Virus record (IMG/VR): IMGVR_UViG_3300017971_000265
Location: 13,933 to 77,932 of that record
Length of the DNA stretch: 64,000 nt
Reading direction: 5' to 3' (one strand)
Origin: a virus
The position numbers and the translations under genes were made by a program. Below are positions 3 through 37,610 of the stretch, one piece after another; position 1 is the stretch's first letter, and each line of letters starts with the position of its first letter. The notes beneath the pieces are model-generated. The model was not told where the DNA came from. It searched no databases and saw nothing but the letters and a program-made list of their open reading frames with translations.

Positions 3-473
3 CGGCCCGAAGAAGAAGATCCATTTTTTGAGCTTTACAAGATGCAGGAGCATTTTAAGCTGATGGATCAGCGGATCGCGATGGAGACAGCTACGGAGAA
101 GAATCTTACTAAATTATTTAGTACGACACATAAGGAGTTTTTGACAGCGGCACGCCTGGGGGATCTCATTATGATGAAGAAAGAAAAATTGGGGCTCTTA
201 CGGAAGGAGAGAGGTGGTGTACGTCAGCGTGTTGGCAGTGGCGCTCCTGGCCGATTAGATTTGTCCGAGATAGTTTCAAATCCAGAATCGAGACAGAGGG
301 TGTTGGGTTTTGTAGAGGCCCTTTTTGGTGATCCCGAGCTTTTGGAGGAAATAGGGGGGAAGAAGAAAGAGGCAGAAGAGAAGCCGAAAAAAGTTAGGTC
401 GAAGAGAGAGAAACGGAAACGAAGAATTTCACCGCGTCCTTCGAGCGGAACATTTGGCAAGCGTAAGAGATGA
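3..473 (+). CDS. 5'-truncated protein upstream of terminase; possible terminase small subunit
   Basis: Frame is open from base 3 (RPEEEDPFFELYKMQ...); stop overlaps the terL start (ATGA). Function inferred from position only. Confidence 0.4.
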   Translation, partial: RPEEEDPFFELYKMQEHFKLMDQRIAMETATEKNLTKLFSTTHKEFLTAARLGDLIMMKKEKLGLLRKERGGVRQRVGSGAPGRLDLSEIVSNPESRQRVLGFVEALFGDPELLEEIGGKKKEAEEKPKKVRSKREKRKRRISPRPSSGTFGKRKR

Positions 474-13985: not shown

Positions 13986-15233
13986 ATGGCAGTTCGACCT
14001 CTCGAAGAAGATTTCCAACGTTTAGGATTATCACAAGATGAAATCCGTGCGTCACTTCACAATATGGGGCGACCCTTGGGTGAAATGGCAGAGGCGGATC
14101 TCAGCGATGGTTCTGAAGAAGAGGAAGATGAGGACTTCGAGGAATCCTATCTGAGTGATCTGATAGGTCATGACGACGATGAGGCAGAGGACTTTGACGA
14201 GATGTCAGAGGAAGATTATTTTGAGTTTGTTGACAATCTTTCCGATGAAGAGTTGGATAGGTTGCTTGAAAACTCGGAGATGTTCGAGGCGAAGTTTATC
14301 AAGCTTACTCCTTTGGGTACGCGCAAGACGGCTCGCAGGAAGAGGAAGAAATGGCTCAAAACGGCTGCGGGTCAAGCCTATGCAAGAAAGCAGATGCAGA
14401 AGCGAAAGCGTCCCGCTTTTAAAAAGCAAGCCAAGAAGCAGCGTATTAGGCGCAAAAGAGCGGGTGGAGCACGTAAGGGCTATATGATGCGTGCCGGAGT
14501 CGAAAATCCTTCAGAAGGGAAAGAAGCTATACATGAAGATCTCATGGAAAGCTTGACCGATCTCGCTGAGTCGATTGAGCGTGAACCTGTTTCTCGTTTC
14601 GACGAATATGTCACAGCATTTAATGCCCTTGCTGATCTGGGAGAGCTGGGTGCTGCAAAGATCATGGACGAAGACGAAGATGCGGCAATGGACGTCTTGA
14701 ATCTGTCGCTCCAGGCAGAAGAAGTGTTGAAGCTCATGGAGGACATGGGTGGAGCGCTCGACGAAGACGAAGACGAGGTGCTGGAAGAGGCTCTGGCCCA
14801 GCTGATGGAGCTTGCCGGAGAACTCGTCGAGGAGTATGGCTTGCTTCTCGAAGATGAAGACGAGGAAGAGTATGAGGACGAGGAGCTGGAAGAAGATGAG
14901 GAAGAGATCAATCCCTTCCTAGAGGCTGCTGCTTCGCTTCGTGAAGCTAGACGTCCCCCCAAGGGCAAGAAGCGCTTTCTTCTCAATCCTAAGTCCAGAA
15001 AGGCCGTAAAGGGTCGGTCGAAGTGGAGCAAGGCCGGTGGCAATGCTAAGAGGCAGTTGGCTGGACGCAAAGATGTGAGGAATAAGCAGGCTTTGCTTGG
15101 CTATCTCAAGATGGTGAAGGCGGGCAAGGTTGCTCCTGGCCAACCCATTATGATGAGTAAAACCGGGAAGCCCCTCAGCAAGGGTGCGAGAGCTGCCAAG
15201 AAATTGGCTGCGGCCCGAAGGAAAGCTGGCTGA
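13986..15233 (+). CDS. Prohead core/scaffold-like protein with alternating acidic and basic blocks
   Basis: D/E tracts and K/R tracts; position of T4 gp67/gp68. Confidence 0.6.
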   Translation: MAVRPLEEDFQRLGLSQDEIRASLHNMGRPLGEMAEADLSDGSEEEEDEDFEESYLSDLIGHDDDEAEDFDEMSEEDYFEFVDNLSDEELDRLLENSEMFEAKFIKLTPLGTRKTARRKRKKWLKTAAGQAYARKQMQKRKRPAFKKQAKKQRIRRKRAGGARKGYMMRAGVENPSEGKEAIHEDLMESLTDLAESIEREPVSRFDEYVTAFNALADLGELGAAKIMDEDEDAAMDVLNLSLQAEEVLKLMEDMGGALDEDEDEVLEEALAQLMELAGELVEEYGLLLEDEDEEEYEDEELEEDEEEINPFLEAAASLREARRPPKGKKRFLLNPKSRKAVKGRSKWSKAGGNAKRQLAGRKDVRNKQALLGYLKMVKAGKVAPGQPIMMSKTGKPLSKGARAAKKLAAARRKAG

Positions 15234-17995
15234 TGAAAGGTAAGATGCTCCAGATTCTTCGGGAAGGTGAAGAAATTCAGGAGATAGGTATTCCTGAAGG
15301 AAAGACATTGGACGATCTTCTTGAAGACGTCTGTGTCTTGGAATTCAAGCCGGAAGATTTGTGTGAGAGCGAAGATGGTAAGCGCCCATATCTGAAGGGT
15401 AGATTCGGGTTCGTAGATAAGGCAACCGCGAACAAGAGGGTCTATCCTCGCAACATCATGTTGCGTGAGGTGAATCGTATTCTCGAAGATATGCATGCTA
15501 AGGGTGTCTATGGTGAGTTGGATCATCCATGTCTTACGGATAGTGATTTCCGAGTTCTTACCTCAGATGGTTGGAAGGAGTTTAGGGACATTAGGGTTGG
15601 TGACAAAATATGGTCCCGCAAGGATGGCCATGCTGTTTTGTCTACTGTTCGTGGGATTGTGGATGAGCCCTATGATGGAGATGCATACAAGGTCAAGGGT
15701 AGGAGCATTGATGCTATCTTTACACCAGCGCACAAGATGGTGTTGAACAAGAGACCTGATCGATGTGGCAACGATGTACAAGATGAGTATGTGACAATTT
15801 CCGATATTGCAGAGAATCCTGGGAAATATAGTCATTATGCTATTCCGAATAGAGCACAATGGTTTGAGGAAAAGATTGATACTGTTGTTATTCCCGGCGT
15901 ATCTATTCCTAGAGTAAAATCGGCCAGAAACGATGTTTCTGTTGATTTGAAACTAGATGCGAAGGTATATGCTGCCTTTTTGGGAATATACCTGTCTGAA
16001 GGATTTTGTAGTCCTGAAGACACAGATAACTACATTGTCAATATCTATCAGAAGAATGAGTGGTCCAAGAGGTATATTTACGACGAGGTTCTGAGCAAGT
16101 TTCCAAAAGAGCTGGAGTGGCATGAGACTGATAAAGGGTATGCTCTTTCAGATGCTCGTTTGTATTTTTATCTCAAAAAACTCGGTGACGTATACTCAAG
16201 ACATGTGCCAGAGGAAGCAAAAAATCTTGGAATCGATTGTCTCAACGAGCTTATTTTTTGGTTTGCTAATGGAAGACTTGTTTTTAGCAATTCGAAAGAT
16301 GAGAATTGCAATGTAACCAATGGGCAAACTGGGAAGCAAGTTTTAGCTGAAGAGATCAGGGAAGATTTTACCAAACCTTTGACTAGACAGGATGTTTTTT
16401 CAGTATCGAAACGATTGATAGACGACTTGCATGAATGTTTGGTTCGTTCTGGTCGGTCTGGAAGTATTTCTTGCATCTATCCAGATAATGACTATCAGTT
16501 TGCTGGAAGAACAATTCTGGCGGCTAATAAAGTTCCATTATATCAGTTACACATTGAACATAGTTGTCACACATGGATGGACCCTCGCTTTATCTCTATT
16601 GAGAAGATAAAGCATGCCGGTAACATTTATTGTCTAACTGTCGATAATGGTAATTTCTATATGGAAAAAAATGGCTATTCGTTCTGGACTGGAAATAGCG
16701 ATGGAAAAACGAAGTTTTCCCGAGTTAGCCATTTTGTTACCGATGGCGAGATCACAGAAGATGGAGAAATTCGAGGTAAGATTGAATTTATTCCCGGTAC
16801 AATCAACGGGGATCAGGCTCTTGCTATTGCGCGTGCAGGTGGCAGGTTGGGGGTGAGTAGCCGTGGATTCGGTTCTACCGCTCCCGATTCAAAAGGCAAT
16901 GACGTCGTACAGGAAGACTACAAATTGGTAACTTGGGATATTGTTGCCGATCCAGCTAACGCAGGAGCACACCCTGATTTTGTGGTGGAGCATAAGGAGG
17001 CACAGAAGATGGATCTGGATAGACTCAAAAAAGAACATCCCGAATTGGTAGAGGCGATTCAGAAGGAGACCACGGAAGCGGTTGAGTCTGAGGCGCGGAC
17101 CCATGCCAGGGAAGCATTGCGCGAAGAATTCGAAGGACGGCTTCAGGAAGAAGCAGATTCTATCCGAGAGGAAGCTGTTGAAGAAGCTCGTGGCAAATTA
17201 CTCGAAGATCCCGAGGTGGCTGGTTCTGCAACCGCCATTGAAAGGGTCAAAGAGATCGTTGCTCCATTTATCCTTTCGGAGGATGAGAGCAACGAGGTGG
17301 CGAGGCTCAAGAAGAAAATTGTCGCGTTGGAGCAAAAGATCGCTGACCAAGATGAAGCCTTGACTGTTGCGAGAGAGGAGAGTGATGAGCTTTCCGGTAT
17401 CGCTAAGGAGCTTGGGTATCATCTCTATTTGGAACGCGAACTAAGTGACAATGCGCATTTTGAGCAAGTCATGGAAATGCTTGGTGACGTCAGTGAGTAC
17501 GATACTCTGGACCAACTCAAGGATCGTGTTGAGGAGATTTCCGAGGCGCTTTCCGAGCAGGACAAGGTGACAGAGGATTACGAGGTTCGAATTTCTCAGA
17601 TGGAGAAGGAGCTGAATAAAATCACGGAAGAGCGTGATAAGGCTCTTAGTATCGGAAAGCAGTTTGGCCTGCGTGCCTATGTCGAGCGGAAGATTGCAGA
17701 TAACCCAAGGGCTTCGCAGCTGAGGGAGTTTATTGGGAATCAGGCATTCGAAAGCAGAGAAGATGTGGACAAGCTGGTCGAGTCATTTACGGCTGCTAAC
17801 CCTCCCTCAGAGGAATACGAAAAGATCCGTAATGGGATCGAGAAGAGAGGGCAAACGTTGCCGGAGGACATTGGCTCACGTAGTCCCAAGTCGTTGACGG
17901 AAGGAATGGGAGACGTCGCGGGCGTACCCATAAACGAGCTAAGGGAGCGTGCGGAGAGAATGAATCCTCCCCGCGCTTCTGTGGCGCAACAGTAG
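15233..17995 (+). CDS. Prohead protease (T4 gp21-like) with intein, fused to a C-terminal coiled-coil scaffold
   Basis: NKRVYP, GELDHP, GVSSRGFGS, TWDIVADP; long E/K-rich helical tail. Confidence 0.92.
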   Translation: MKGKMLQILREGEEIQEIGIPEGKTLDDLLEDVCVLEFKPEDLCESEDGKRPYLKGRFGFVDKATANKRVYPRNIMLREVNRILEDMHAKGVYGELDHPCLTDSDFRVLTSDGWKEFRDIRVGDKIWSRKDGHAVLSTVRGIVDEPYDGDAYKVKGRSIDAIFTPAHKMVLNKRPDRCGNDVQDEYVTISDIAENPGKYSHYAIPNRAQWFEEKIDTVVIPGVSIPRVKSARNDVSVDLKLDAKVYAAFLGIYLSEGFCSPEDTDNYIVNIYQKNEWSKRYIYDEVLSKFPKELEWHETDKGYALSDARLYFYLKKLGDVYSRHVPEEAKNLGIDCLNELIFWFANGRLVFSNSKDENCNVTNGQTGKQVLAEEIREDFTKPLTRQDVFSVSKRLIDDLHECLVRSGRSGSISCIYPDNDYQFAGRTILAANKVPLYQLHIEHSCHTWMDPRFISIEKIKHAGNIYCLTVDNGNFYMEKNGYSFWTGNSDGKTKFSRVSHFVTDGEITEDGEIRGKIEFIPGTINGDQALAIARAGGRLGVSSRGFGSTAPDSKGNDVVQEDYKLVTWDIVADPANAGAHPDFVVEHKEAQKMDLDRLKKEHPELVEAIQKETTEAVESEARTHAREALREEFEGRLQEEADSIREEAVEEARGKLLEDPEVAGSATAIERVKEIVAPFILSEDESNEVARLKKKIVALEQKIADQDEALTVAREESDELSGIAKELGYHLYLERELSDNAHFEQVMEMLGDVSEYDTLDQLKDRVEEISEALSEQDKVTEDYEVRISQMEKELNKITEERDKALSIGKQFGLRAYVERKIADNPRASQLREFIGNQAFESREDVDKLVESFTAANPPSEEYEKIRNGIEKRGQTLPEDIGSRSPKSLTEGMGDVAGVPINELRERAERMNPPRASVAQQ
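15530..16696 (+). mobile_element. Intein (389 aa) in the prohead protease, directly after GELDHP
   Basis: CLTDSD...FTPAHKM...IYCLTVDNGNFY...WTGN followed by Ser. Confidence 0.9.
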
Positions 17996-18023: not shown

Positions 18024-19508
18024 ATGGAAGCGAGAGATTATCTCAACGATGAGGCGCTTGCACAATCGGCCGGAACCGTTCTGGACGAGGATCTGAATGT
18101 GGCGCTTCAGGCAAAGTGGGGCGGATTGATGGAACAGGGCTGGGACTCGTGGACGAAGCGCTGCATGGCGCGGATGTTCGAGAACGAGATGGTCCACCTC
18201 AATCAGCTCAAACGAAGGTTTCTCACAGAGGCCACGCTGGCGCAAAACATCCCGGATCTGGTCAAATTCATCTTTCCCATCGTGCGGAGAGTATGGGCCA
18301 ACCTGATCGCTAACGGGCTGTTTTCGATTCAGCCGATGAACTCGCCAATTGGAGGCATCTTCTATTGGGAGTACAAGTACGGGACGTCAAAGGGAACTAT
18401 CACTGCTGGCGACAACATGATAGAGAACTTTGATCGTTACTACTCCTCGGAATATGTCGATGGCGAATCGATTGGAACTGGCACCGATACCTATTCTGGT
18501 ACGCTGGCTTGGAAGCCTGTGAAGCCTTATGGCATGGGCCAGGTGGGAATCGAGTTCGTTGGTACTACCGATGTCGGGGCTACTCTGCGCATCTATGATG
18601 CTGACGGAAGTGGTGATTTGTCAGGAGATGTCAGTGGTGCAAACACTATTACGTTTGCCACGGGTGCTTACAGCATCAAATTCACCGCATCTGTAAATAA
18701 TGTGGTTGCCAACTACTTCTACAACATGGAGGCTGAGGCGGACAACGTACCGCAGGTCAACGTGGACATCACCCTCGAAGCTATCAAGGCTTGGAGTCGG
18801 AAGCTGAAGATATTGTGGTCCAGCGAGGCTGCAGACGACATGAGGGCCGTGCTCAATATGGATATTGAGCCCGAGTTGACATCCGGTGTGGCAAGTGAGA
18901 TCGCGCTGGGTATCGACCGCGAGCTGATCATGGCGGCTTACGGTTCGGGAACAACCAACACAGACACGTTCGATGCAGCGGTGCCACCGGGACGAAACCA
19001 GGTGGATCACTTCCGCAACATCATGACGACCATCGAGAAGGTGTCGGGTGGGATCAACACGGCTACGCACAGAGGCCCTGGCAACTTCCTGGTTATAGGG
19101 CCGAGCGTACAGCCGATTTTTGGTGCGCTGGCCACGCACGGTGACCTGGTACGTGTCTATACGGACGTGCCGACAGGACCGGTAGGCCAGGGTGTGACGG
19201 GACGTCCCGCATTCCCATTGCCGCAGGCTCCGAGTGGATACGGTGTTTATCCGATGGGCTTCCTCCAGAACAAGTGGACGGTCATTGTGGACCCGTATTT
19301 CCCGAGTGGGAAGATTCTGGTCGGTCTGAAGGGGACGATGTTCACCGACTCCGGTTTGGTGTATGCCCCCTACGTGCCACTGGAAATGACGGCTGCGTTC
19401 CTCGATCCGGCAGACTTTTCGCTGCGGAAGGGTATGAGAACCAGGTATGCCAAGAAGCTGGTTAATTCCAATTTCTACGGCATTATCACGGTAACCAACC
19501 TTCCCTAA
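18024..19508 (+). CDS. Major capsid protein (T4 gp23-like)
   Basis: IQPMNSPIGGIF, SRKLKILWS, GLVYAPYVPL, GMRTRYA. Confidence 0.95.
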   Translation: MEARDYLNDEALAQSAGTVLDEDLNVALQAKWGGLMEQGWDSWTKRCMARMFENEMVHLNQLKRRFLTEATLAQNIPDLVKFIFPIVRRVWANLIANGLFSIQPMNSPIGGIFYWEYKYGTSKGTITAGDNMIENFDRYYSSEYVDGESIGTGTDTYSGTLAWKPVKPYGMGQVGIEFVGTTDVGATLRIYDADGSGDLSGDVSGANTITFATGAYSIKFTASVNNVVANYFYNMEAEADNVPQVNVDITLEAIKAWSRKLKILWSSEAADDMRAVLNMDIEPELTSGVASEIALGIDRELIMAAYGSGTTNTDTFDAAVPPGRNQVDHFRNIMTTIEKVSGGINTATHRGPGNFLVIGPSVQPIFGALATHGDLVRVYTDVPTGPVGQGVTGRPAFPLPQAPSGYGVYPMGFLQNKWTVIVDPYFPSGKILVGLKGTMFTDSGLVYAPYVPLEMTAAFLDPADFSLRKGMRTRYAKKLVNSNFYGIITVTNLP

Positions 19509-20302: not shown

Positions 20303-20599
20303 ATGAGTCTAGGTGCATATATTAGGGAGTCATTGAGAGAAAAAGTTCTTGCTGAGTCCAAGAGTGTTGAGGAGTGGTGGGATCGTTTACCGGGTAAAAG
20401 ACGTCTCAAAGTTGTGGCGATTCTTGGGTTGAGCAAGGGGAGGGCGAAGGTTATTTATAGTAAACTCAACCCTGATGAGCAGAGTGAAATCTCTGCATAT
20501 TTCAAGAAATATAAGGGCAAGGTTGAGGGAACAGAGGGGACAGATGATACTTTGAACGAGTCGATGCAGAGGAATGAAGCTAGTCTTAGCCGAGACTAG
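20303..20599 (+). CDS. Small hypothetical protein with leader ending VLAE
   Basis: SD GAGGAG; basic core flanked by LAE and LNE. Confidence 0.65.
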   Translation: MSLGAYIRESLREKVLAESKSVEEWWDRLPGKRRLKVVAILGLSKGRAKVIYSKLNPDEQSEISAYFKKYKGKVEGTEGTDDTLNESMQRNEASLSRD

Positions 20600-20712
20600 C
20601 GGGAGACATCGATGTTGCCTGAGAACATCGAGTCCAAAAGTCCCGCGTCGAGAAAAGGTTTGGTGAGAGATGGGAATTCCCAAGGGTCTTTCCCACATGC
20701 GAGGAGGGTTAG

Positions 20713-21285
20713 ATGGAGTTTTATAAGAAGAATCCAAAGATTGAGGGGACCATTACTGTCCAGAAGGTATTGCTGGATGACGACATGGTTGTGACGGGAG
20801 AAGAGTTTAGGATCTTTGCTAATCCAAAAACCTTTCCCTCTATTCCTGTTAGGTTGGTTGCTGTCGATTTTGACTCGCTGACTGAGACACAGAAAGAGAG
20901 GGCTATTCAGTTTGCTAAGGAGCGAGGGCAACCCGCGCCCAGACATCTCGGTGTGATCAAGTCGGAGAATTTTGAGCTGACAAGAGATGGTGCTTTCAAA
21001 ATTCATAGTCAACCGAAAAAGCCTTCCAAGCAAGCACCGGCACCTGTTCTTCCCCCCAAGAAGGCTGAACCAAAACTTACCCAGCTTTATAACCTGGATG
21101 AGTTTATTGATATTTTTCCAGGTATTACAGATCGGAATGCGAGGCAAGTGAGACGCAAATTTCTGACAGTGAAGAGTTTGGCAGAGGCCAGCAATGCTGA
21201 TTTGAGAGCGGTAGGGGTTAGGTCAAATTTTTTTAAGCGCCTGCGAGATCGGGCCAATTTGGAGATGGAGCAAGGAGACGAGTAG
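20713..21285 (+). CDS. Hypothetical protein with C-terminal helix-hairpin-helix-like domain
   Basis: IFPGIT...LAEASNADLRAVGV pattern. Confidence 0.55.
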   Translation: MEFYKKNPKIEGTITVQKVLLDDDMVVTGEEFRIFANPKTFPSIPVRLVAVDFDSLTETQKERAIQFAKERGQPAPRHLGVIKSENFELTRDGAFKIHSQPKKPSKQAPAPVLPPKKAEPKLTQLYNLDEFIDIFPGITDRNARQVRRKFLTVKSLAEASNADLRAVGVRSNFFKRLRDRANLEMEQGDE

Positions 21286-21294
21286 GAGGATAAT

Positions 21295-21870
21295 ATGCCC
21301 AAACTAGGAGATCTCGGACGGAACGTTGACATACTGAGGCAGATGCGTGATCGGCTAGTTGCTGAGGAGGGGAGAGCTAAGGAGCAGGAGGTTGAACAGG
21401 ATCGATGGGATAGTTTTTCCGAGGTAGCGTCCGAGATTATTGAGGCGTGTGACAATAGACGTCTGGAAGAGCTTGTTACGGCGGTTCGTAAGCTCAAGAA
21501 TCGGTTGCGCCGACCAGCGGTTAGGAAAGAATTGGCAAAGCTGGAAGCCGATGGAGGAAACGATAAGATTCCTGCCAAGAAAGATAAGCCAATTACTGGG
21601 CAGTGCAAATGCGCGGAATGCGGCAAGGTTATTGATGGGTCAAAAGAGCCCTGTGTTGAAGATGCCTTATGTACTGATTGTGCCTTGAAAAACAGAGTTG
21701 TTTCTAAGAAGGAACAGGACAAAAAGAAGAAGAAAAAGGGCGTGCCACCTACTCCAGGCATGGGATCTGAAGGAGGAGGAGCGTCAGGGGGCGAGGATGA
21801 GGGAGAGAGAGACGACGATGAGGAAAAAGAAAAGAAAGAGTCTCTGAGGAGAAGAAGCTATTCATTATGA
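21295..21870 (+). CDS. Hypothetical protein with a CxxC...CxxC zinc finger
   Basis: CAECG...LCTDC; ends ESLRRRSYSL. Confidence 0.65.
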   Translation: MPKLGDLGRNVDILRQMRDRLVAEEGRAKEQEVEQDRWDSFSEVASEIIEACDNRRLEELVTAVRKLKNRLRRPAVRKELAKLEADGGNDKIPAKKDKPITGQCKCAECGKVIDGSKEPCVEDALCTDCALKNRVVSKKEQDKKKKKKGVPPTPGMGSEGGGASGGEDEGERDDDEEKEKKESLRRRSYSL

Positions 21871-21923
21871 GTCTGGCCCAGGCAAATGAAGTCTCAACCG
21901 AGACAGTTGCGGCAAGCAGATGA
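21867..21923 (+). CDS. 18-aa mini-ORF resembling an orphan class II leader
   Basis: MSLAQANEVSTETVAASR; ATGA overlaps at both ends. Confidence 0.45.
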   Translation: MSLAQANEVSTETVAASR

Positions 21924-22684
21924 GGCTGCAAGAGTTCAAGCGATGGATTCGCCGCAAACTAGGCGATGATGGGCAATGTACCGTCAAGGTTGAATTGACG
22001 GAGCAACAGATTGAACAAGCCTTAGAGGATGCTAAGGATTGGTTCAATGTCTTTGTGGGGATCTATAGAGAATCATCTCTTAATATTGCCGAAGGAACGG
22101 TGGAGTATGATCTGTCTGCTGTTATCCCTGCTATCGATACAGTGTCCAAGGTGTGGTTTCCTCGTCGTGGCACTGAGATCGATTTTAGTGTTCTCTATCC
22201 CGGTTTTTTAGACGTCGAAGGAATTCCTTACGGAGTAGGGACACTGTGGGGCGAGGGATATCCCCAAACATCGATTACGCAGACTCTTCAAACTCTCGAA
22301 TCCATGTCTAAGCTTTTGAGTTCGGATCTAGATTGGGAGTTCTACAAGGATACCATGGTCGATCCCGCGACAAAGACGTTGCGAATAATGCCATCTCCAA
22401 AACAGGGAGGTGTTGTGTATTATTTCTATCGAGTCGATCCATCGGCTATTAAGTTGGAGAATTACGATCCGAAACATCTCTGGTTTATTAGGGAGTGGGC
22501 CTTAGCTGAGGCGAAGTATACGTTGGGGCGAATCCGAGGGAAATATTCAGGCGGTTTGCCAGCGGCAGGTGGAGATCGTAGTCTTGACGGCGAGGCGCTA
22601 ATCACTGAGTCGAGAGAAGATAAGGAACGAATAGAGGAAAAAATCCTGGATATGCAAGGTCCAGTTATGCCTATGATTTATTAG
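21920..22684 (+). CDS. Neck protein (T4 gp13-like)
   Basis: WIRRKLG...VELTEQQIEQALEDA and WALAEAKYTLGRIRGKY...LDGEAL. Confidence 0.8.
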   Translation: MRLQEFKRWIRRKLGDDGQCTVKVELTEQQIEQALEDAKDWFNVFVGIYRESSLNIAEGTVEYDLSAVIPAIDTVSKVWFPRRGTEIDFSVLYPGFLDVEGIPYGVGTLWGEGYPQTSITQTLQTLESMSKLLSSDLDWEFYKDTMVDPATKTLRIMPSPKQGGVVYYFYRVDPSAIKLENYDPKHLWFIREWALAEAKYTLGRIRGKYSGGLPAAGGDRSLDGEALITESREDKERIEEKILDMQGPVMPMIY

Positions 22685-22839
22685 GAGAGTCGAATCACAC
22701 TGGTGAGGAAGCGATGAGAGCGATACAGGAATGGCAACTTTGGATGCACCCATATCCTACTCTGATTAAAAACAAGAGTAGACGTCTGGACCCATCAAAA
22801 TTCCCCTTTGGGAGGATTTTTCGGGATGGGAAGGAGCTG

Positions 22840-23844
22840 GTGAGGCTATCTGACTTGTTTGAGGCTCGGAAGCAGACTCCTCCCCAGTTGAAACGATGTG
22901 TTCGGGCCATTGTAGACAAAGAGATGGAGGGCGAGGATCGGACCCCAGAGGCGATGCGTGCGGCCATTTCGAAGGGTTTTGCTATTTGTACCTCACAGCT
23001 CCAGAAGAGTGGCTATTTGAAGGTAGGTAGTCAGAAGCCCACCAAGGCCGGGAAACAGGCGGGGCGCTCCAAGGCTGCTCAGAAGGCTCACATGGACAAG
23101 GTGGCCGATTATGAGCGGATGCTTGGTGTGGCTCGTGGAGAAGGCTCAGAGGATACTGGGGGCTCTCTGAGCGAGGCTGAGGGGGGGTTTAGGTTGAATG
23201 TGGCCCGTGTCCCGCTCGGCAAGGCCAGATCTTATGCAGAAGGAGTGTTGCGGCAGGCAGGCGAAGATATTGAGAGAGAATTGCCTGATTTTGATAAGAA
23301 TTATGTTCGTTTGCAGAAGATGACCAGACAGGCATTAGACGTCCCAAGGATCGAGATGCCCGTTATTGAGCCCAAGGACATGAAGCGATTTGATAAAAAG
23401 CTCAAAAAGGGCCACCTCGATATTTTTGCTCCCTATGCGGAGGGTCATTTAGAAGCTCCGAAGCATTTGACCAAACAGACAGGCTCAGAATGGATCAAGC
23501 TAGGTGTGAGGGATGGCAAGAAAAAGGACGATGTAGTGGTTGGTCGCTGGACCTCGGTCCCCGCTAAAAAGCTGATTCCGACTCAATCGCAGATCTGGCT
23601 AGAGAAACTGGTGAGAAACATCGCAAAGTTTGGCAGGCCGAGGGCGGGTTCTCCAGTTCTCAATACGACAATTATCGTTTCTAGGGAGGGTTATATCTTG
23701 GATGGCCATCACCGATATGGGCAGGTGATGTTGGCGAATCCAGACTTGAAATTGAAAGCGCTCTATATTCCATTGCCCATTGAATTGTTACTCAAGATTG
23801 GACGCACCTATGGCAACGCCATTGGTAATGTTCAGAAGGGGTAA
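22840..23844 (+). CDS. Two-module protein with C-terminal ParB/Srx-like domain
   Basis: SD AAGGAG before GTG 22840 (track starts at 22714); LIPTQ...IIVSREGYILDGHHR. Confidence 0.7.
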   Translation: MRLSDLFEARKQTPPQLKRCVRAIVDKEMEGEDRTPEAMRAAISKGFAICTSQLQKSGYLKVGSQKPTKAGKQAGRSKAAQKAHMDKVADYERMLGVARGEGSEDTGGSLSEAEGGFRLNVARVPLGKARSYAEGVLRQAGEDIERELPDFDKNYVRLQKMTRQALDVPRIEMPVIEPKDMKRFDKKLKKGHLDIFAPYAEGHLEAPKHLTKQTGSEWIKLGVRDGKKKDDVVVGRWTSVPAKKLIPTQSQIWLEKLVRNIAKFGRPRAGSPVLNTTIIVSREGYILDGHHRYGQVMLANPDLKLKALYIPLPIELLLKIGRTYGNAIGNVQKG

Positions 23845-23848
23845 GGAA

Positions 23849-24523
23849 ATGTCTCTTTTCTATATGAACCAATTACTTTCTGAGGCAGTTGATACGGTTT
23901 CTAGGGACGTCTTAACAGAGGTGGCTATTGGCCAGACAACGGAAACGGCAAATCTACGAATCCACCGTTACTCTAGTGCGATCCGTGTTACCGATCTCAC
24001 AAATGCGGGAAAACGAGGAAAAAAGGTGGATGAATTCGCTCTTTACGATATTGACTCTTTGCGAGATCCCAGGATGAAAGATTTGGTAGAGATGTTTGCT
24101 GCCATGCTTAGCCGTGGGCGGATCAAAACTTATAAACAAGCTTTGACGGCGGCTAGGGGATTAGTTGATGAGTCGGAACGAATTGCGAAAGCTTCTGATC
24201 AGTTTCTTTCCGTGCCCAAGATAGAGACGGGTCAATACAAGGGCGTTCGAGTAGCACCGGCCGGTTTTAAACCTATTGATTTTAAAAATCCGAATATTGC
24301 GCTGTATGCGGACAATGAGAGGTTCCGAATCACAGATATGAGGGATAAGTACAATGAACCTACCCTAATAGCTCCGCTTCGTGGCAAGGTTGCATCGGTT
24401 AAAAAATTCTATGAGTGGGCTCGCAACAACATGGGAAAGTTGAACCGCATGACTTTTAGAGACGTCATGAAGGAGATGAAACGTGCCGGAATCGATTATC
24501 ACTACTATTGCGCGGTAGACTGA
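23849..24523 (+). CDS. Hypothetical protein, class II leader
   Basis: MSLFYMNQLLSEAV...VLTE. Confidence 0.7.
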   Translation: MSLFYMNQLLSEAVDTVSRDVLTEVAIGQTTETANLRIHRYSSAIRVTDLTNAGKRGKKVDEFALYDIDSLRDPRMKDLVEMFAAMLSRGRIKTYKQALTAARGLVDESERIAKASDQFLSVPKIETGQYKGVRVAPAGFKPIDFKNPNIALYADNERFRITDMRDKYNEPTLIAPLRGKVASVKKFYEWARNNMGKLNRMTFRDVMKEMKRAGIDYHYYCAVD

Positions 24524-24530
24524 GGGAAAA

Positions 24531-25481
24531 ATGCTTGGAAAATCCATAGAATTTTTGGAAGATATCATCTCGATATTGGGGGAACAACCCGTGGGAGATG
24601 AAAACGATGTGGATGCATTTGGCATGGATGCACATACTAGGAGAAGGTTACGGGTTGATCGTTTATTGCAACCTAGAGGGAAGAAAAAGCCGCGTAAGCC
24701 GATGCGTACCAAAATGCCGCATTCGTTGGCCAGAATTCCCCGGCTGGGGAATGAGGAGATTGTGAATTCATCACTGAGGAGACGAGGTTATCTAGCAGAG
24801 AGCGTCCGGGTTCTTAAGAAAGCTCCTCCCAAGACCGCTGTGGCAGATGTGTACGGGTTAAGATTCTCGTCGTGGGACGGGAAGCTGGCATTGGTGACGA
24901 CATCTGCATTAAGTGCTTTCAGCTCAGGCGAGCATATCAGTCAATGGTTTAATCCAGAGACATTAGCGCAGCGATATGTTGTACGGTTTGCTGTAGACAG
25001 CCGAGGGAAACCTATACCGGTGACGAATAGTAGTTGGATTGGGGCGCAGCCTTACCTTGCTGATGCGCATCTTCCTTACGAGAAGAACACATTTAAGCTT
25101 GGTAGCCGTGGATATGGCATGAGGGCCGAAGTTGAAGGATCTTTTTCAAAACCTCAAGAGTTTTGGGTAAAGAAATCGTTCAAGAATCTGGATGGTGCAC
25201 AGACCAACGTAGTGGAACACTATTTCCGCAAGCGCGGTTTTATTGACGTCTCTGATTTCAAACTCACGGTGCGGGATTGGCGCATTATGCTTGGCATGGG
25301 TTTTGACGAGATTCAGGAGAAACTGCATTACGAGAAGGCGAAGGAGGCTGATTATTTGGTTACGAGGATACTCGGACATTCTACTATCGATGATAGTTTG
25401 ATGAACAGAGTTTGGAAGGGCATCAAGGGCGTATACGCCTTGACACGGCAGGGTAAGATAAAATTCGCTGTAGAAAGGTGA
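24531..25481 (+). CDS. Hypothetical protein with internal in-frame start (24762) carrying a class I leader
   Basis: GAGGAG then GTG, NSSLRRRGYLAE. Confidence 0.65.
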   Translation: MLGKSIEFLEDIISILGEQPVGDENDVDAFGMDAHTRRRLRVDRLLQPRGKKKPRKPMRTKMPHSLARIPRLGNEEIVNSSLRRRGYLAESVRVLKKAPPKTAVADVYGLRFSSWDGKLALVTTSALSAFSSGEHISQWFNPETLAQRYVVRFAVDSRGKPIPVTNSSWIGAQPYLADAHLPYEKNTFKLGSRGYGMRAEVEGSFSKPQEFWVKKSFKNLDGAQTNVVEHYFRKRGFIDVSDFKLTVRDWRIMLGMGFDEIQEKLHYEKAKEADYLVTRILGHSTIDDSLMNRVWKGIKGVYALTRQGKIKFAVER

Positions 25482-25489
25482 ATCAAAAG

Positions 25490-25828
25490 ATGGCGCACAA
25501 AAAGCTGAGACATAGGCAATATCTGGGAGAGGGCACGACACCGTGGATATGGGCTTTTTCAAAACGTCCAGATGTTGAGTTTGCAATACAGATAGTTTCG
25601 GCTGATTCATTTCAGGTGCAAATAGGTATGGGGGGTGAGTGGTGGAACGGACGTCTAAGGCTTGGACGGAACATTCTCTATCATCGCAAGGGGAAAGTTG
25701 ATCCTGCCTACCGACCCGTAACAGCAGAGGTAAGTCATAGGAAAGACGGTATATATTTCTCAATTTCCGGTGGCTTCTATGGGGATCAGACTGCGAAGTT
25801 TACGATGAGGCTAGTTGCGAATACGTGA
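25490..25828 (+). CDS. Hypothetical protein, class I leader
   Basis: MAHKKLRHRQYLGE. Confidence 0.65.
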   Translation: MAHKKLRHRQYLGEGTTPWIWAFSKRPDVEFAIQIVSADSFQVQIGMGGEWWNGRLRLGRNILYHRKGKVDPAYRPVTAEVSHRKDGIYFSISGGFYGDQTAKFTMRLVANT

Positions 25829-26241
25829 TGGTTTCTTCTCTTACCAGTACTGTTGATCTTCTCCAAGATGCACGCAAGTTCATGACGCCTGGACGCGAGG
25901 GGCGTGGCAAGCATGATCCGGTTGGATATGTACTTGGTAAATTTTTTAACTCTACGCCAGAGTTCGATAAGTCGTTAGTTGAGAGACAGCGACGGAAGAA
26001 TGGTTGGACGCTGCGAGGAGCATGGCCAAGTACTGGTCGGAAAATATTCGATTGGGAATTTGATGTTTGGGGCGAGCGCGGGGGTGAAGTAGTTGTGAAA
26101 TTTGCGATGTGGAGTAATGAAGGATTGATTGATGGTCTGAGTTTTAGAACCAACGTAGGGACTGTGGATAGGCTTATTCCTAAGTTTTTGAGAAAATACT
26201 TCTATCCCATGAAGGCTATGGCAAAGGAGAGAGCGGCATGA
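25825..26241 (+). CDS. Hypothetical protein
   Basis: Overlapping start/stop codons with both neighbours. Confidence 0.6.
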   Translation: MMVSSLTSTVDLLQDARKFMTPGREGRGKHDPVGYVLGKFFNSTPEFDKSLVERQRRKNGWTLRGAWPSTGRKIFDWEFDVWGERGGEVVVKFAMWSNEGLIDGLSFRTNVGTVDRLIPKFLRKYFYPMKAMAKERAA

Positions 26242-26633
26242 ATCTTAGATGTCGCGGATATTTAGTGGAAAAGACGCTAAATGTTAAGCAGGCAATTCCC
26301 GATCAAGATTTAAGCGATAGGGAATTGGTACAAAGGATAAAAAGCTATAGGGTCGATAAGACTCGGGGGTGGGGTTTGTTTGTCAAGGCAAGAAATCTTC
26401 GACCGGGAATAGATGCGAAAGAATTTTATAAGATTTTTGATTCTGTAAATCCTGATCCTCATCACACGATAGTTTCGGTTAAGTTTGAGCCGACACATAT
26501 ATCGAAAGATACTCCAGGATTATCCATAATGGTTACCTCAAGAACGCCGCATTTGGTACGTCATATAATGAGCTATGGTGGAACTGGTGGCACGCCTGTA
26601 CGTGAGTTTGATCGGCAATGGAGAGCAATATGA
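26238..26633 (+). CDS. Hypothetical protein, class I leader
   Basis: MNLRCRGYLVE. Confidence 0.7.
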   Translation: MNLRCRGYLVEKTLNVKQAIPDQDLSDRELVQRIKSYRVDKTRGWGLFVKARNLRPGIDAKEFYKIFDSVNPDPHHTIVSVKFEPTHISKDTPGLSIMVTSRTPHLVRHIMSYGGTGGTPVREFDRQWRAI

Positions 26634-26863
26634 ATCTTAGACGTCGTGGATATTTACAGGAGTCGGTTGGGATTGTGAAAAAATCTCAGATTGATAGGAA
26701 CAAATCTTATACTGTTTGGGAGAAGCATCCCTATATGGATACGTGGATGATCGATAGATCTTACTATGGGATTTATTTCTATGGAGAAGGCGAGGCTTAT
26801 TTGAAATCAAAGAAACATATTGTGGTTCCCAGGGGAGTGGACCCAAATAGGGAGGACAAGTGA
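26630..26863 (+). CDS. Hypothetical protein, class I leader
   Basis: MNLRRRGYLQE; SD GGAG. Confidence 0.7.
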   Translation: MNLRRRGYLQESVGIVKKSQIDRNKSYTVWEKHPYMDTWMIDRSYYGIYFYGEGEAYLKSKKHIVVPRGVDPNREDK

Positions 26864-26864
26864 T

Positions 26865-27353
26865 ATGAGTCTTCGAGATGTAAATGAATTGCTTCGTGGC
26901 AGTGTTGCGCAGATCAGGGACATAGAAGAGGCAGCGCCAGCGCCCGGTGTGGTAGACTTGGAGAATCCGGTCTATCATATACGTCAGAAGGTGGCTAAGA
27001 TCAGTGTCCCGGTCTCACCAACAACTAGTATTGCTGCTGGACAGACAGGGGCGAAGTTGTTGAAACAGAGACTGACAGGTTGGACAAAGGCTGATCATAA
27101 AAAGGCTGTGGTTAAGTTGGAAAAAATGGCAAAGAGGGCCAAGGCTGACTATGCGCGTGCGCTCGATAGGGCGGCGCAGGAAACGTGGGGGCGAAAATGG
27201 AAGCCGACTGATTACAAGATCTCTTGCGTTGGTTCGGATGAATTTTCCGAGTCGATCAAGAAAAAACTCCGAGTGTTGTGTCGTAAGATGACAATTATTG
27301 GAGATGCGCTTGCGTCTCATAGGTATTTGGCAAAATATCTAAGGACAAAATGA
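26865..27353 (+). CDS. Hypothetical basic protein, class II leader
   Basis: SD GGAGG; MSLRDVNELL...DIEE/A. Confidence 0.7.
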   Translation: MSLRDVNELLRGSVAQIRDIEEAAPAPGVVDLENPVYHIRQKVAKISVPVSPTTSIAAGQTGAKLLKQRLTGWTKADHKKAVVKLEKMAKRAKADYARALDRAAQETWGRKWKPTDYKISCVGSDEFSESIKKKLRVLCRKMTIIGDALASHRYLAKYLRTK

Positions 27354-27835
27354 AGTTTACTCTTACAGAGAATCTGATCTTGCTTGAATTCCTCCTGGGG
27401 GAACTCTCAGGATCGGAGTATCTGGTTGAGAAAAAGATCTCTAAACTGACTCCTTACCAGAAGGCGCAAAGGGCAAGACGTCAAACAGTGGCGGCACATA
27501 CTCCTCGTCCGGCGAAACAGAGTGTGTTTTACAAACATGCTGTGCGGGCAATATTTCAGAAGCTTAGAAAAGGCGGGGATGGTTTCAAGGGGTCAGCTAG
27601 GGGAGGGCAGCTTATTGCTCAACATATGTTGAAAAAGCATGGATATGCAGCGGGGAGTCCTTCTGGCAACTTCAGTCTAACCAGCAAGGGTAGGAAGAGG
27701 AATTTGAAACATGTACGTGAGCCTGCTGGGGTACGGGCGAGAAAAGAGCGTGCCTACAACTACATTATGGGTATTCAGAAACGTGCCGCTCAGAGGCAGC
27801 AGCAGGTGAAGGCCAAGGCGGCTGGAGCTGGATAG
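27350..27835 (+). CDS. Hypothetical very basic protein with acidic/hydrophobic leader ending YLVE
   Basis: Sharp charge switch after YLVE. Confidence 0.7.
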   Translation: MKFTLTENLILLEFLLGELSGSEYLVEKKISKLTPYQKAQRARRQTVAAHTPRPAKQSVFYKHAVRAIFQKLRKGGDGFKGSARGGQLIAQHMLKKHGYAAGSPSGNFSLTSKGRKRNLKHVREPAGVRARKERAYNYIMGIQKRAAQRQQQVKAKAAGAG

Positions 27836-27843
27836 GAGACGTC

Positions 27844-28116
27844 ATGAATAGTTTGAGAAATCGCGGGTATTTGGAAGAGGGGCAGTATCAAGTGTCTATT
27901 GGTCCTGACGATGACCTGGAAGATAAGACTGGTGAGCTGATGAAAATGATCAGAGCAGCTATTCACGGTGGTATCAGGAGGGTATTGGCTCAGAATGGTA
28001 TGTCTCCTTCTGTGATCGGGAAGGTGGATAGATACCTTGATGCCAAAGAAGGTAAATTCATGGATGATTTGACTGATATTATGTTGAAAATGCGAGTTCC
28101 ACATAGGCTTGGGTAA
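27844..28116 (+). CDS. Hypothetical protein, class I leader
   Basis: MNSLRNRGYLEE. Confidence 0.7.
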   Translation: MNSLRNRGYLEEGQYQVSIGPDDDLEDKTGELMKMIRAAIHGGIRRVLAQNGMSPSVIGKVDRYLDAKEGKFMDDLTDIMLKMRVPHRLG

Positions 28117-28119
28117 ATA

Positions 28120-28149
28120 ATGGGTACACTGATAACTGATTGCAACCAA
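28120..28149 (+). pseudogene. Relic copy of the 5' end of the gp14-like gene
   Basis: 25/30 nt identical to 28449-28478 (MGTLITDCNQ vs MGTLINDCDQ). Confidence 0.75.
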
Positions 28150-28163
28150 ATAGGAGACGTCAA

Positions 28164-28439
28164 ATGTCGCTAAGAAATAGGTCTTATAGATATATCGATG
28201 AAGCCAAGATGCGGAAGTATGTTGGTGTTAGGGCCAAGGGTGTTGCATCTCTGCTTTTTTCTACTGCAAACGATGCCAAGGATGCTGCAGCTAAAATCAA
28301 TCGTTTCAAAAGGAGTTATGATGCATCTTATAGGAAGTCTGGTGACGTATGGAGAGTAGAGGTTGAGGGCATATCTATTGCCGAGCTTGTTTCATTGATT
28401 GACAAGCTGGATCTCAAACCGTTGACGCAATATCACTAG
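28164..28439 (+). CDS. Hypothetical protein, class I leader
   Basis: SD AGGAG; MSLRNRSYRYIDE/A. Confidence 0.7.
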   Translation: MSLRNRSYRYIDEAKMRKYVGVRAKGVASLLFSTANDAKDAAAKINRFKRSYDASYRKSGDVWRVEVEGISIAELVSLIDKLDLKPLTQYH

Positions 28440-28448
28440 GAAAGCAAC

Positions 28449-28928
28449 GTGGGCACACTAATAAATGATTGCGACCAATGTTTTTTCGACAGCGTGGCAC
28501 AAGAGGTGATCAAGCTGGCAGGAACTACTGCGATCATCTATCAGTTTGAAGAAGTCGAGAGTTCACGAGATGCGCTTTGGGATGAGGAGATTGAGACTGT
28601 TTACAAAAAGAATAGTGAGGGGAATCCAGGAATTGAATGTCCCGTCTTTTTTAAGGCTCCAGACAAGTCTGGTCTTACCGGAGAAGAGGGGTATAGGCTT
28701 GATAGGACGTCAGAGCTTCATGTGGCATGGCGAGACTTAGAAAGCAGAGGGCTGAGACGTTTGCGTCCTGGTGATATTGTGAAAGTTTGGGATATGTATT
28801 TTGATGTTATAGAGTCACACGCTACCGAGGGGTACATTAACGATACTCCGACAAAATCGACCATTGTTTTTGATGTGACGAGACGAACAAAGGGGCCACC
28901 TGAGAGTTTGTGGGAGCCTGGCGAATGA
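28449..28928 (+). CDS. Neck/head-closure protein (T4 gp14-like)
   Basis: AQEVIKLAG...IIY...DALWDE, RPGDIV; position downstream of the gp13-like gene. Confidence 0.65.
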   Translation: MGTLINDCDQCFFDSVAQEVIKLAGTTAIIYQFEEVESSRDALWDEEIETVYKKNSEGNPGIECPVFFKAPDKSGLTGEEGYRLDRTSELHVAWRDLESRGLRRLRPGDIVKVWDMYFDVIESHATEGYINDTPTKSTIVFDVTRRTKGPPESLWEPGE

Positions 28929-29374
28929 GTGAGGTAAGGCAAATCTTAGAGGATGTGTTTACGGAGAGGAAGAAGGCTACTATCCGTGGACGTGCCAAAG
29001 GATTGAGAAGGCCGAAGAGAGCTGAGAAACAGCATTATTTGGGGCGTGCCACAGGAATGAGAGGGCGTGATCTAAGCGGAGAGCCCGAGGCTCCGAAAGT
29101 GCCTGGAGCTAAGGAAGAGCCGTGGAAGAAAGAGAGAATTACTGAGTTTGAGAGTCCTGACGACTGGATGTTGTCGATGATTTTGGTTGCAATAATGCAT
29201 GCGAATCCTGGCATTAAACCGGAAGATGCGATTAAAATAGGGAAAGAATGGGTAAAAAAATTATATCTGCCAAGGACTGACTATCTTTGGAGAATGCAAA
29301 TGGTCAGACTGAACAGAACAGGTATCAGAGCTGAGGCATCAAAGATTCGGCGTGAATTGTTCAAGGTGATCTAG
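28925..29374 (+). CDS. Hypothetical protein, leader ending VFTE
   Basis: MSEVRQILEDVFTE then basic segment. Confidence 0.65.
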   Translation: MSEVRQILEDVFTERKKATIRGRAKGLRRPKRAEKQHYLGRATGMRGRDLSGEPEAPKVPGAKEEPWKKERITEFESPDDWMLSMILVAIMHANPGIKPEDAIKIGKEWVKKLYLPRTDYLWRMQMVRLNRTGIRAEASKIRRELFKVI

Positions 29375-29383
29375 GAGGTTGAG

Positions 29384-29665
29384 ATGGACATAATAGAAGC
29401 AAATGCTTTGCTAGATAAAGCAGTGGAAAGGCTCGCAGAGAAGATTTGGTCAGGAGAGGTTAAGACCAAGTGGCATCCTCCCGAGGGTTTTTTCGAGCAG
29501 AGTGCGAGCAAGATTGCTAGTGGTCTAAAATCAGCCTCGAAAGATCTGAAGCAAGCCATGGCCCGGTTGAATTTCTATATAAACAGAGCTGGGGAAAATC
29601 TCTCAGATGCAGATGTTAGACGTCTGGAGATGGCCAAGAAAAAACTCCAAAAGGCTTATGTATAG
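29384..29665 (+). CDS. DUF3175-like protein with class II leader
   Basis: EGFF...KIASGL...AMARLNFYINRAGENL...LEMAK resembles the DUF3175 signature as I recall it. Confidence 0.65.
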   Translation: MDIIEANALLDKAVERLAEKIWSGEVKTKWHPPEGFFEQSASKIASGLKSASKDLKQAMARLNFYINRAGENLSDADVRRLEMAKKKLQKAYV

Positions 29666-29673
29666 GAGGAGTC

Positions 29674-30285
29674 ATGAATCTACACAAAGTAAACGAATTG
29701 TTGGCTGAGACGATTTATGAGATCGGGGCTGGTGGTTTGAGGCCGATCAAAACGAGTGGTATTTTGATTCAACCAAATGTGACTTACCACATGGGTGCAT
29801 CTAGTTCTCCCCATAAAATCTTTGTGACCAAGGTTGATGATAGGATGATTTATTATCGATCTTATCCGTTTTATCGAGGACGAGAGGCCCGAATTGATCG
29901 AGGGATAGGAACGGATCTGATTCTTCAAGGCGTCAATACCTTCATGAAAAGTGGGTATGGTAAGTACCCTTGGGGAAAAGCGACGATCAGAAAATACAAA
30001 TCGTTACTTGCTGGCAAAAAGGTTAAGCCTGAAGATCTCAAGGATTACCAGAGAATAAAAGTCACGGTGGGGCCGGGCAAGGGGTATGAGGGCAAAGATT
30101 TGTGGCGTGAGGCTGAGTCGCATGGCTATGGTGTTGGGGGTAGGCGAGTCGAGGGAATGACGGATGGATTTCCGTGGATGAAAAATGATAATTCTAGTGT
30201 GTACGAGATTGAGATGGATAAGAAGAGTTTGCCGGGTCTAAAGAAAGATAAGCGTTTCAAAATTCTGAGCATAAAAGAAATGTAG
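29674..30285 (+). CDS. Hypothetical protein, class II leader
   Basis: MNLHKVNELLAETIYE. Confidence 0.7.
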   Translation: MNLHKVNELLAETIYEIGAGGLRPIKTSGILIQPNVTYHMGASSSPHKIFVTKVDDRMIYYRSYPFYRGREARIDRGIGTDLILQGVNTFMKSGYGKYPWGKATIRKYKSLLAGKKVKPEDLKDYQRIKVTVGPGKGYEGKDLWREAESHGYGVGGRRVEGMTDGFPWMKNDNSSVYEIEMDKKSLPGLKKDKRFKILSIKEM

Positions 30286-30297
30286 GGAGGTGACGTC

Positions 30298-30651
30298 GTG
30301 AAGCTTCGGAAAATAAATGAGTTATTGGGTGATACGGTTGAGAGCTTGACCGAATCGTTTCCTGCTTCATCTCCTGGTGAGGTAGCAATTCGCAAACTCA
30401 TAAGGGCTGTTCAGACAAAGACTCGTCTCCGATTTATGTATCGATCTGGTAAGATTGTTACGCTGAGCGGTGCAGTTGTGGCAACACTTGCTGCAACAGA
30501 GGACGGAAGATTCAATATAGAGGTTATCGAGTACGATACAAATTATCGATATGGATACAAGCCTAGAGGCAAAAAAACCTACAAGGAATTGTCGAAAGAA
30601 GCTGCGGTGAAAGTGCTTGCTAAGGCGTTAGAGGCGCATCCAGGAGTATAG
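30298..30651 (+). CDS. Hypothetical protein, class II leader
   Basis: MKLRKINELLGDTVESLTE. Confidence 0.7.
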   Translation: MKLRKINELLGDTVESLTESFPASSPGEVAIRKLIRAVQTKTRLRFMYRSGKIVTLSGAVVATLAATEDGRFNIEVIEYDTNYRYGYKPRGKKTYKELSKEAAVKVLAKALEAHPGV

Positions 30652-30662
30652 GAGTTGTCGTC

Positions 30663-31079
30663 ATGAGTGTTGAGTGGGTCAATGGAATGCTGAATGAGGC
30701 GATTGCAGAACTGGCTGAGGCGAGAAACAGGACTCTTAAGAAGGATTTGAAATTCAAGAGTGGCGATATTATTCCTAGAGGCACCCCGGTTGAGGTGGAG
30801 TTTTTGGGAGAAAGAGATCCCAGGGGATATAGTGTCGCGCTTTTGAAGGCGAATTGGAGAGGGTCAAATGGGCGAGATTATCAGAGGGAGCCTGTTCGAA
30901 TATCGATTGCCAAGCTACACAAATATGTGAGTGGTTTTGGTAAGCCACCAGGAATGGCCAAGCTGGAACGCATGGCCTCGGATGGAGTAGCAACGACTCC
31001 GACAGGAAAGCGCGTGGAGCCTGATGGATATGGACCAGATGGATCTCCTAGTTGGCTCATGGCGTTGGGATTTGTCTAA
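30663..31079 (+). CDS. Hypothetical protein, class II leader
   Basis: MSVEWVNGMLNEAIAELAE/A; C-terminal VEPDG...SWL..LG motif. Confidence 0.7.
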   Translation: MSVEWVNGMLNEAIAELAEARNRTLKKDLKFKSGDIIPRGTPVEVEFLGERDPRGYSVALLKANWRGSNGRDYQREPVRISIAKLHKYVSGFGKPPGMAKLERMASDGVATTPTGKRVEPDGYGPDGSPSWLMALGFV

Positions 31080-37412: not shown

Positions 37413-37610
37413 ATGGGACTACGGAAAAGAGCATATCTCGCAGAAATCACCACATCGGGCGCTGTGCCCCCTCTTGTTAAGCCCTTTGCCGTCTACCGAA
37501 GAGCTTTTCCAACGACGCTGAGCGGCATTGTGGACAAGCTGACGCGATCTAAGAAACGGTTGGCCAAGAAATTCTCCAAAATGGGGCCTCCTCTTCCTCC
37601 CAAGGTTTGA
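37413..37610 (+). CDS. Small basic protein, class I leader
   Basis: MGLRKRAYLAE. Confidence 0.6.
   Translation: MGLRKRAYLAEITTSGAVPPLVKPFAVYRRAFPTTLSGIVDKLTRSKKRLAKKFSKMGPPLPPKV

Follow-up and report, generated by a model that had tools for sequence, protein, structure and literature searches.

An acidic amphipathic N-terminus shared by unrelated small proteins of a T4-like virus: a probable capsid targeting sequence

Why should small genes that encode unrelated proteins begin with the same short peptide? The question is raised by positions 20303-31079 of a 64,000-nt stretch of viral DNA (the window; bases 13933-77932 of the IMG/VR virus record IMGVR_UViG_3300017971_000265, which is 77.9 kb long and judged to be about 46% complete). 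An initial annotation described a leader of the form MxLxxVNELL...(L/I)xE on several small genes of this stretch, named it class II to distinguish it from a class I leader on other genes, and proposed a second targeting route using an amphipathic helix. All positions below refer to the window unless marked as genome positions. The + strand carries all genes. Positions 20303-31079 have the capsid gene on one side and the neck and tail genes on the other, with the tail sheath, tube and hub genes located from 34022 onward. Our analysis indicates that the class II N-terminus of this uncultured T4-like phage is probably a T4-type capsid targeting sequence (CTS), clipped by the phage's head protease; on this explanation, class II would be a known device with a new sequence.

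The six quoted leaders were each located exactly where the initial annotation had placed them, at 23849, 26865, 29384, 29674, 30298 (with a GTG start) and 30663, and a Shine-Dalgarno site of the GGAG/AGGAG type was found upstream of every one of these starts. A seventh canonical copy was found at genome position 10444 (window position -3488, approximately 3.5 kb before the window). The pattern [MV].[LIV]..[VIMA]N.[LMI]L occurred 8 times in the six-frame translation, on the + strand only; over 300 shuffles it averaged 0.2 occurrences and never exceeded 2. From 25 leaders (taken from the window, from two related contigs and from database homologs) we built a profile that scored the seven leaders at 23.5-31.3 bits, while the next unrelated start among 3645 candidate starts remained below 10 bits. 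Without its Met position the profile, run over all six frames, returned the same seven N-termini only, none of them internal, with a next best match of 5.5 bits. The absence of an internal copy in this search led us to reject the tag as a copy of part of the phage's own scaffold. A match to REVNRILED within the protease open reading frame (ORF), at 15470, was also discarded as a leader, as it corresponds to the conserved gp21 helix preceding the catalytic His.

The leaders are 12-24 residues long (most 19-24), with N7 and L10 invariant and hydrophobic residues at positions 3, 6, 9, 14 and 17. Their net charge ranges from 0 to -4 at a mean hydrophobicity of about 0, and their mean hydrophobic moment is 0.44 versus 0.22 for 37 other N-termini (p = 4e-5), in agreement with the amphipathic helix proposed initially. 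The (L/I)xE element that had been included in the leader motif was observed within residues 3-24 in all seven leaders. Over the class I and class II proteins combined, (L/I)xE is 10 times denser in the first 25 residues than in the remainder of the protein, the body (24/400 versus 11/1869 positions), an enrichment that is partly circular because the initial annotation had selected on that motif. The bodies, which had been called mostly unrelated and basic, proved to be so: once the first 25 residues had been taken off, a BLASTP comparison of 26 proteins gave no pair with an E below 0.002, and the six class II proteins within the window carry net charges of +4 to +16. Residues shared between pairs of leaders are encoded by the same codon in 42 of 113 cases, with 36 expected from codon usage, and this lack of excess codon identity argues for selection on the peptide and not on the DNA or RNA.

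The same bodies were observed elsewhere with other N-termini or with none. The body of 29384 is a complete DUF3175 domain (Pfam PF11373, E = 3.7e-10), and its closest relatives retain a class II leader in which only M1, L10 and E19 are invariant (alignment A3); among the DUF3175 relatives the body is approximately 80-90% conserved while the leader varies. Bacterial homologs lack the leader, a point the initial annotation had singled out for checking. Six DUF3175 copies from bacterial metagenome-assembled or single-amplified genomes (Ignavibacteria, Dependentiae, the PVC group and others) are leaderless and start 7-9 residues before the conserved Trp, and at the two loci checked the neighbors are cellular genes (major facilitator superfamily transporter, peptidase M90, RNase D-like exonuclease, urocanase). 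On 39 viral contigs DUF3175 was nearly always found behind another leader that ends in xxE 1-4 residues before this Trp, and the remaining viral copies form the terminal part of a long polyprotein; in total, viral DUF3175 was observed with at least six different leaders. One such copy belongs to an unrelated 368-kb phage (L040), where the DUF3175 gene and five other leader-tagged genes, the latter with two further leader types, occupy the interval from the gp20 portal to the gp23 capsid gene, which in T4 holds the core genes. DUF3175 was also noted in the cultured jumbo phages Burkholderia BCSR5 and BcepSauron, Ralstonia phiRSL1 and Xanthomonas PhiXhv (records MW460245, AB366653 and MK552141), with N-termini other than class II in BCSR5 and phiRSL1. 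A literature search for DUF3175 returned no paper mentioning the family.

For the body of 26865 we found 253 homologs, and in none of the 253 was the leader covered. Those nearest to this body (P0188 and P0189; 52-53% identity) have a class I leader, and the homolog in P0190 follows an EDVELDE linker, the same linker as in a 1661-aa polyprotein of the window. Many of the homologs are modules in proteins of 1200-2600 aa, located after ES[LVI]DE↓A joints (the arrow marks the cleavage point), and many others start directly at the module; a short CTS also occurs. Among homologs of the 30663 body, some are extended differently at the N-terminus, some have a fused domain and some lack an extension, and in the alignment of the 29674 family the leader is kept down to 38% identity, with insertions and deletions falling at its junction with the body. 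In an AlphaFold2 model of this family the helix of residues 3-12 has a predicted local distance difference test score of 44 and is detached from a well-folded body (mostly 85-96). Collectively, the tag is strictly N-terminal, conserved as a peptide, portable between unrelated bodies and absent from cellular homologs.

A route into the head that employs such tags is established for T4, where internal proteins carry CTS propeptides of 10-19 residues that bind the prohead core and are subsequently removed, and where gp21 cleaves after L/I-X-E (PMC9026906, PMC3012670). The head module of the window is likewise of the T4 type by Pfam, with a gp20 portal, an S77 prohead protease and a gp23 major capsid protein, the capsid protein being only about 33% identical to those of the nearest cultured phages. 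It matches solved T4 gp23 structures. The protease ORF (Table 1) is interrupted directly after the catalytic-His motif GELDHP by a 389-residue intein and is fused at its C-terminus to a scaffold-like tail of 320 residues that is acidic and helical. After removal of the intein, the protease aligns to T4 gp21 and retains the NKRxYP, GELxHP and GVSSRGxGS motifs. In the N-terminal alignment, the end of the predicted propeptide of the capsid protein (residues 1-69, FLTE↓A) falls exactly on the T4 gp23 maturation site E65↓A66, and because of this coincidence the cleavage specificity of the protease is very likely conserved with T4. Sites of the (L/I)xE type are numerous in the protease ORF including its scaffold-like C-terminal part (29 versus 14 expected) and in the 415-aa charged protein upstream of it (15 versus 8 expected), which by its position and composition is a candidate component of the prohead core or scaffold. 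The polyprotein of 1661 aa contains at least eight such linkers (seven EDVELDE and one EDIELDE), each followed by A or G, and LDE↓A/G is itself an LxE site.

We propose the following sequence of events. The acidic amphipathic helix of 12-24 residues, hydrophobic at positions 3, 6, 10, 13/14 and 17, would dock the newly made cargo protein onto the prohead scaffolding core, and the shell would then close around the core. The gp21-type serine protease would cut after the Glu of the (L/I)-x-E that terminates the leader and release the mature, mostly basic protein, which would remain in the head with the DNA and would probably pass into the host upon infection. Core docking, cleavage, retention in the virion and ejection are steps that we infer from sequence features and from the T4 precedent; the amphipathic helix and the role as an address tag appear well supported, if indirectly.

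Table 1. Positions of the genes discussed, with class II genes first, then the looser cases and then the other genes; arrows mark cleavage points.
Feature	Coordinates	Strand	Length (aa)	Class II profile (bits)	Remarks
Class II cargo gene	23849..24523	+	224	28.1	Leader approx. 1-24 ending LTE; LSE also at 10-12
Class II cargo gene	26865..27353	+	162	25.9	Leader 1-22 ending IEE↓A; body is a widespread module
Class II cargo gene	29384..29665	+	93		Leader 1-19 ending LAE↓K; DUF3175 body
Class II cargo gene	29674..30285	+	203	29.7	Short leader, 1-12 or 1-16 (LAE or IYE)
Class II cargo gene	30298..30651	+	117	29.6	GTG start; leader 1-19 ending LTE↓S
Class II cargo gene	30663..31079	+	138	31.3	Leader 1-19 ending LAE↓A
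Looser case, helical N-terminus	20303..20599	+			IRE, LRE and LAE; not class II by profile
Fusion protein	22714..23844	+	376		N-terminus MRAIQE↓W; LSE joint near residue 152; phrog_2859 match
Diverged class II N-terminus	24531..25481	+	316	3.3	
Looser case, hydrophobic N-terminus	27350..27835	+			Four (L/I)xE in first 27 residues; leader type conserved in relatives
Looser case, short helical N-terminus	28925..29374	+			ILE and FTE; orthologs in L002 and L006
Polyprotein	3598..8583	+	1661		At least 8 linkers strictly matching E[DE][VIL]E[LIM][DE]E
gp20 portal	10179-12926	+			Intein-bearing; Pfam
Candidate prohead core/scaffold component	13986..15233	+	415		Alternating acidic and basic blocks; position and composition
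gp21-type prohead protease	15233..17995	+			Pfam S77, phrog_207; intein at residues 100-488
gp23-type major capsid protein	18024..19508	+			Pfam Gp23, E = 3.6e-60

In T4 the CTS is reportedly found on the internal proteins IPI, IPII and IPIII and on Alt and removed by gp21 (Mullaney and Black 1996, through the reviews PMC9026906 and PMC3012670). The system of the window resembles it in having a short N-terminal tag with an L/I-x-E end on small, basic, fast-changing proteins, in having a gp21-family protease along with gp20 and gp23 head genes, and in the variation of the cargo set between close relatives. It differs in a tag of up to 24 residues rather than 10 to 19, and in scale, with at least seven class II genes, at least eight class I genes and an 18-module polyprotein compared to the handful in T4; targeting and cutting are also, on our side, predicted from sequence. 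The class II profile gave no score to T4 ipI, ipII, ipIII or alt, whose starts (e.g. MKTYQEFIAE, MELITELFDE) are unlike it, and class II is therefore a different tag sequence family with the same architecture. All T4 core and internal proteins that we read begin with a short helix ending in (L/I)xE, and the propeptides of gp24, gp23, gp22, gp67, gp68 and gp21 share with class II this short helical N-terminus and its end.

The gp24 start, MAKINELLRE (gene 24, L052 11324), has the INELL core in common with class II, and when 2969 T4 candidate starts were scored with the class II profile, this true start came third; the two candidates scoring above it lie within coordinates annotated as gene 5. 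At 8.4 bits (E = 0.47) the match is too weak for us to claim homology and serves as a lead only. The register is also off by two residues, the T4 proteins in question are structural and not cargo, and no gp24 paralog was seen in the window. A similar KAELL...LLE layout was noted at the N-terminus of T4 gp23.

Other phages load proteins into their heads by related means. The ejection proteins of phiKZ, 201phi2-1 and SPN3US are internal to the head and processed after Glu by a gp21 homolog, and paralogs in these giant phages share conserved N-termini thought to target them to the prohead; their propeptides, however, are mostly longer than 100 residues with an S/A/G-x-E cut, in contrast to the short propeptides and L/I-x-E of the window (PMC5694885). 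Polyvalent proteins (Iyer et al. 2017, PMC5512222) are similar in that delivered effector modules are shuffled between elements, in that ParB-like domains occur beside virion genes and in that the 26865 module occurs within multi-module proteins of 1200-2600 aa. Polyvalent proteins combine two to fifteen effector domains in one polypeptide of a phage or conjugative element, and they differ from the class II genes, which have a single module with an address tag (22714 is a two-module fusion). Release in the phage of the window would fall to the prohead protease, acting at LxE joints, and not to a metallopeptidase within the chain (PMC5512222). In P1, the N-terminal signal of DarB suffices for loading a protein into the head of a myovirus, and we saw no similarity between this signal and the class II leader (PMC9024508).

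Several observations weigh against a capsid targeting sequence. The (L/I)xE site is short and would be frequent by chance in an acidic helix, the leader has no sequence similarity to the CTS that T4 internal proteins carry, and its likeness to the gp24 propeptide is weak. Leader-tagged genes also occur beyond the head module, at genome positions 10444, 11441 and 12139. The bodies supply no functional clue: Pfam and PHROGs returned nothing for most of them, a Foldseek search of the 29674-family model against the PDB gave no match at E <= 0.001, and a search of the ESM Atlas with the 23849 body gave none. Tagged genes outside the head module would also be expected if the helix had nothing to do with the capsid and served as a common element for interaction or regulation (for a chaperone, host target, assembly factor or oligomerization), its LxE being incidental, and amphipathic heptad-like helices are generic interaction elements. 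We consider this unlikely, as it leaves unexplained the Glu-ended site at a fixed distance before the body start behind many unrelated leaders; moreover, the same bodies serve as polyprotein modules with LxE-type linkers, and the pattern tracks phages with T4-type heads. 

The clustered and co-oriented genes, with their cassette-like exchange between relatives, could instead reflect a duplication relic of diverged paralogs, or a cassette for DNA-level recombination or translation initiation. BLASTP of the bodies led us to reject paralogs, and the codon statistics a DNA or RNA element; the bodies, including DUF3175, comprise modules with independent histories and leaderless homologs, and the motif was never observed away from a start codon, leaving such an origin very improbable. 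A secretion or membrane-targeting signal would likewise be N-terminal, short and probably removed, yet we find it hardly credible for a leader that is acidic and amphipathic, with a hydrophobicity near 0, no hydrophobic core and no signal-peptidase-type site. The Sec/Tat features (a basic n-region and an uninterrupted hydrophobic core) were absent from the class II leaders as judged by composition, no dedicated predictor having been used. A bolder form of the targeting explanation takes the tag to copy the scaffold-binding helix of the T4-type shell proteins (MAKINELLRE of gp24, ...KAELLNKW..LLE of gp23), so that the cargo would impersonate a capsid subunit; class I would use a second docking site, and the two addressable channels plus the polyprotein would govern the dosage of over 30 injected modules. 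This proposal strikes us as rather unlikely.

Returning to the capsid targeting sequence as such, the two leader classes might represent one route or two. They are chemically opposite, class I having a net charge of 0 to +3 (+2 or +3 in 7 of 8) and an RxRxY core while class II is helical with 0 to -4. Class II was also observed at N-termini only, while the class I motif also occurs internally (24768 and 9173). Both contrasts, along with the acidic and basic blocks of the 415-aa core candidate, would fit two physically distinct loading routes that differ in docking site, timing or copy number, a refinement we hold to be possible while leaning somewhat against it. The same cleavage motif terminates both tags, and close relatives use either tag on the same cargo body. 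Because the 26865 body and the two halves of 22714 carry one class or the other in relatives, the two classes seem exchangeable as tags for a single destination. The initial proposal of a second targeting route is thereby retained in part: an amphipathic helix serving as a portable tag with a protease site stands, and a route separate from that of class I is not supported, since the two classes are swapped on the same cargo.

In addition to the six clear leaders, the initial annotation had listed five looser cases (20303, 22840, 24531, 27350 and 28925). None of these scored with the class II profile, and one, 24531, can be kept as a diverged class II leader. In the related contig L006 the region of 24531 is divided into two genes, the first one coding for 77 aa with a canonical class II leader and ending at a stop, the second one being class I-like, and because the L006 ortholog starts with a canonical leader we regard that of 24531 as a decayed one. 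Within the 24531 ORF lies an internal class I motif, SLRRRGYLAE (nt 24768-24797), and a class I-type motif, SLRRRNFVSE, was also noted at 9173 inside ORF 8594-9892; such internal motifs would act as joints. The position 22840 is not a gene start: it is an internal GTG, and the gene begins at 22714 with its own Shine-Dalgarno site. The C-terminal half of the 22714 protein has a ParB/sulfiredoxin-like DGHHRY motif, and its two halves correspond to separate L006 genes (482-919 and 5269-5997), one with a class I leader and the other with a class II-like leader. The DGHHRY half is reminiscent of the DdrB-like ParB domains predicted as injected (PMC5512222). Between the window and L006, genes fuse or split exactly at LxE joints in both of these cases (22714 and 24531). 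The three remaining cases (20303, 27350 and 28925) were not assigned to class II; their helical N-termini are of other types, contain xxE sites and are conserved in relatives. The L002 ortholog of 20303 has a different helix, ending in LVE, ahead of a conserved WWD motif, and 27350 has orthologs in both L002 and L006.

The contigs L002 and L006 have a structural backbone syntenic with the window, and their leader-bearing genes are largely different. The L002 ortholog of 23849 has a leader ending in LVE at the same junction, and for 26865, 30298 and 30663 no ortholog was found in L002 or L006. When the adaptor protein was used alone as a query, no relative was found among viral contigs.

If the capsid targeting explanation is correct, the proteins that phages of this lineage send into their host could be identified from the tag sequence alone, which would open up a large pool of unknown early-acting effectors that includes DUF3175, the ParB-like domain, the widespread 26865 module and a number of orphan proteins. 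In T4-like phages that differ greatly from one another, a single cargo module would be re-addressed with lineage-specific tags or strung into polyproteins jointed by protease sites, and engineered phages could be loaded by means of such tags. Since the principle was already known from T4 in the 1990s, the advance lies in the breadth of cases and in finding cargo; the mechanism is not new.

Some further genes and leaders were noted. A class I gene was observed within the tail module at 37413-37610, which weighs on the same side as the tagged genes before the window; it encodes a very basic protein of 65 aa, lies between the tail tube genes and the next tail genes and is conserved in L002 (16661-16867). 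Like the portal gene, a 1038-aa ORF at 470-3586 bears an intein. Other contigs showed leader families of their own, including M(R/K)xLIE in L014, leaders ending in YLxE in L037, a T4-like MKFKxYLxE in L023, and MExxRLKxLAGxxTE and MLxxELLE in L040. The sequence RLVARYK was observed in L005 and in some database homologs.

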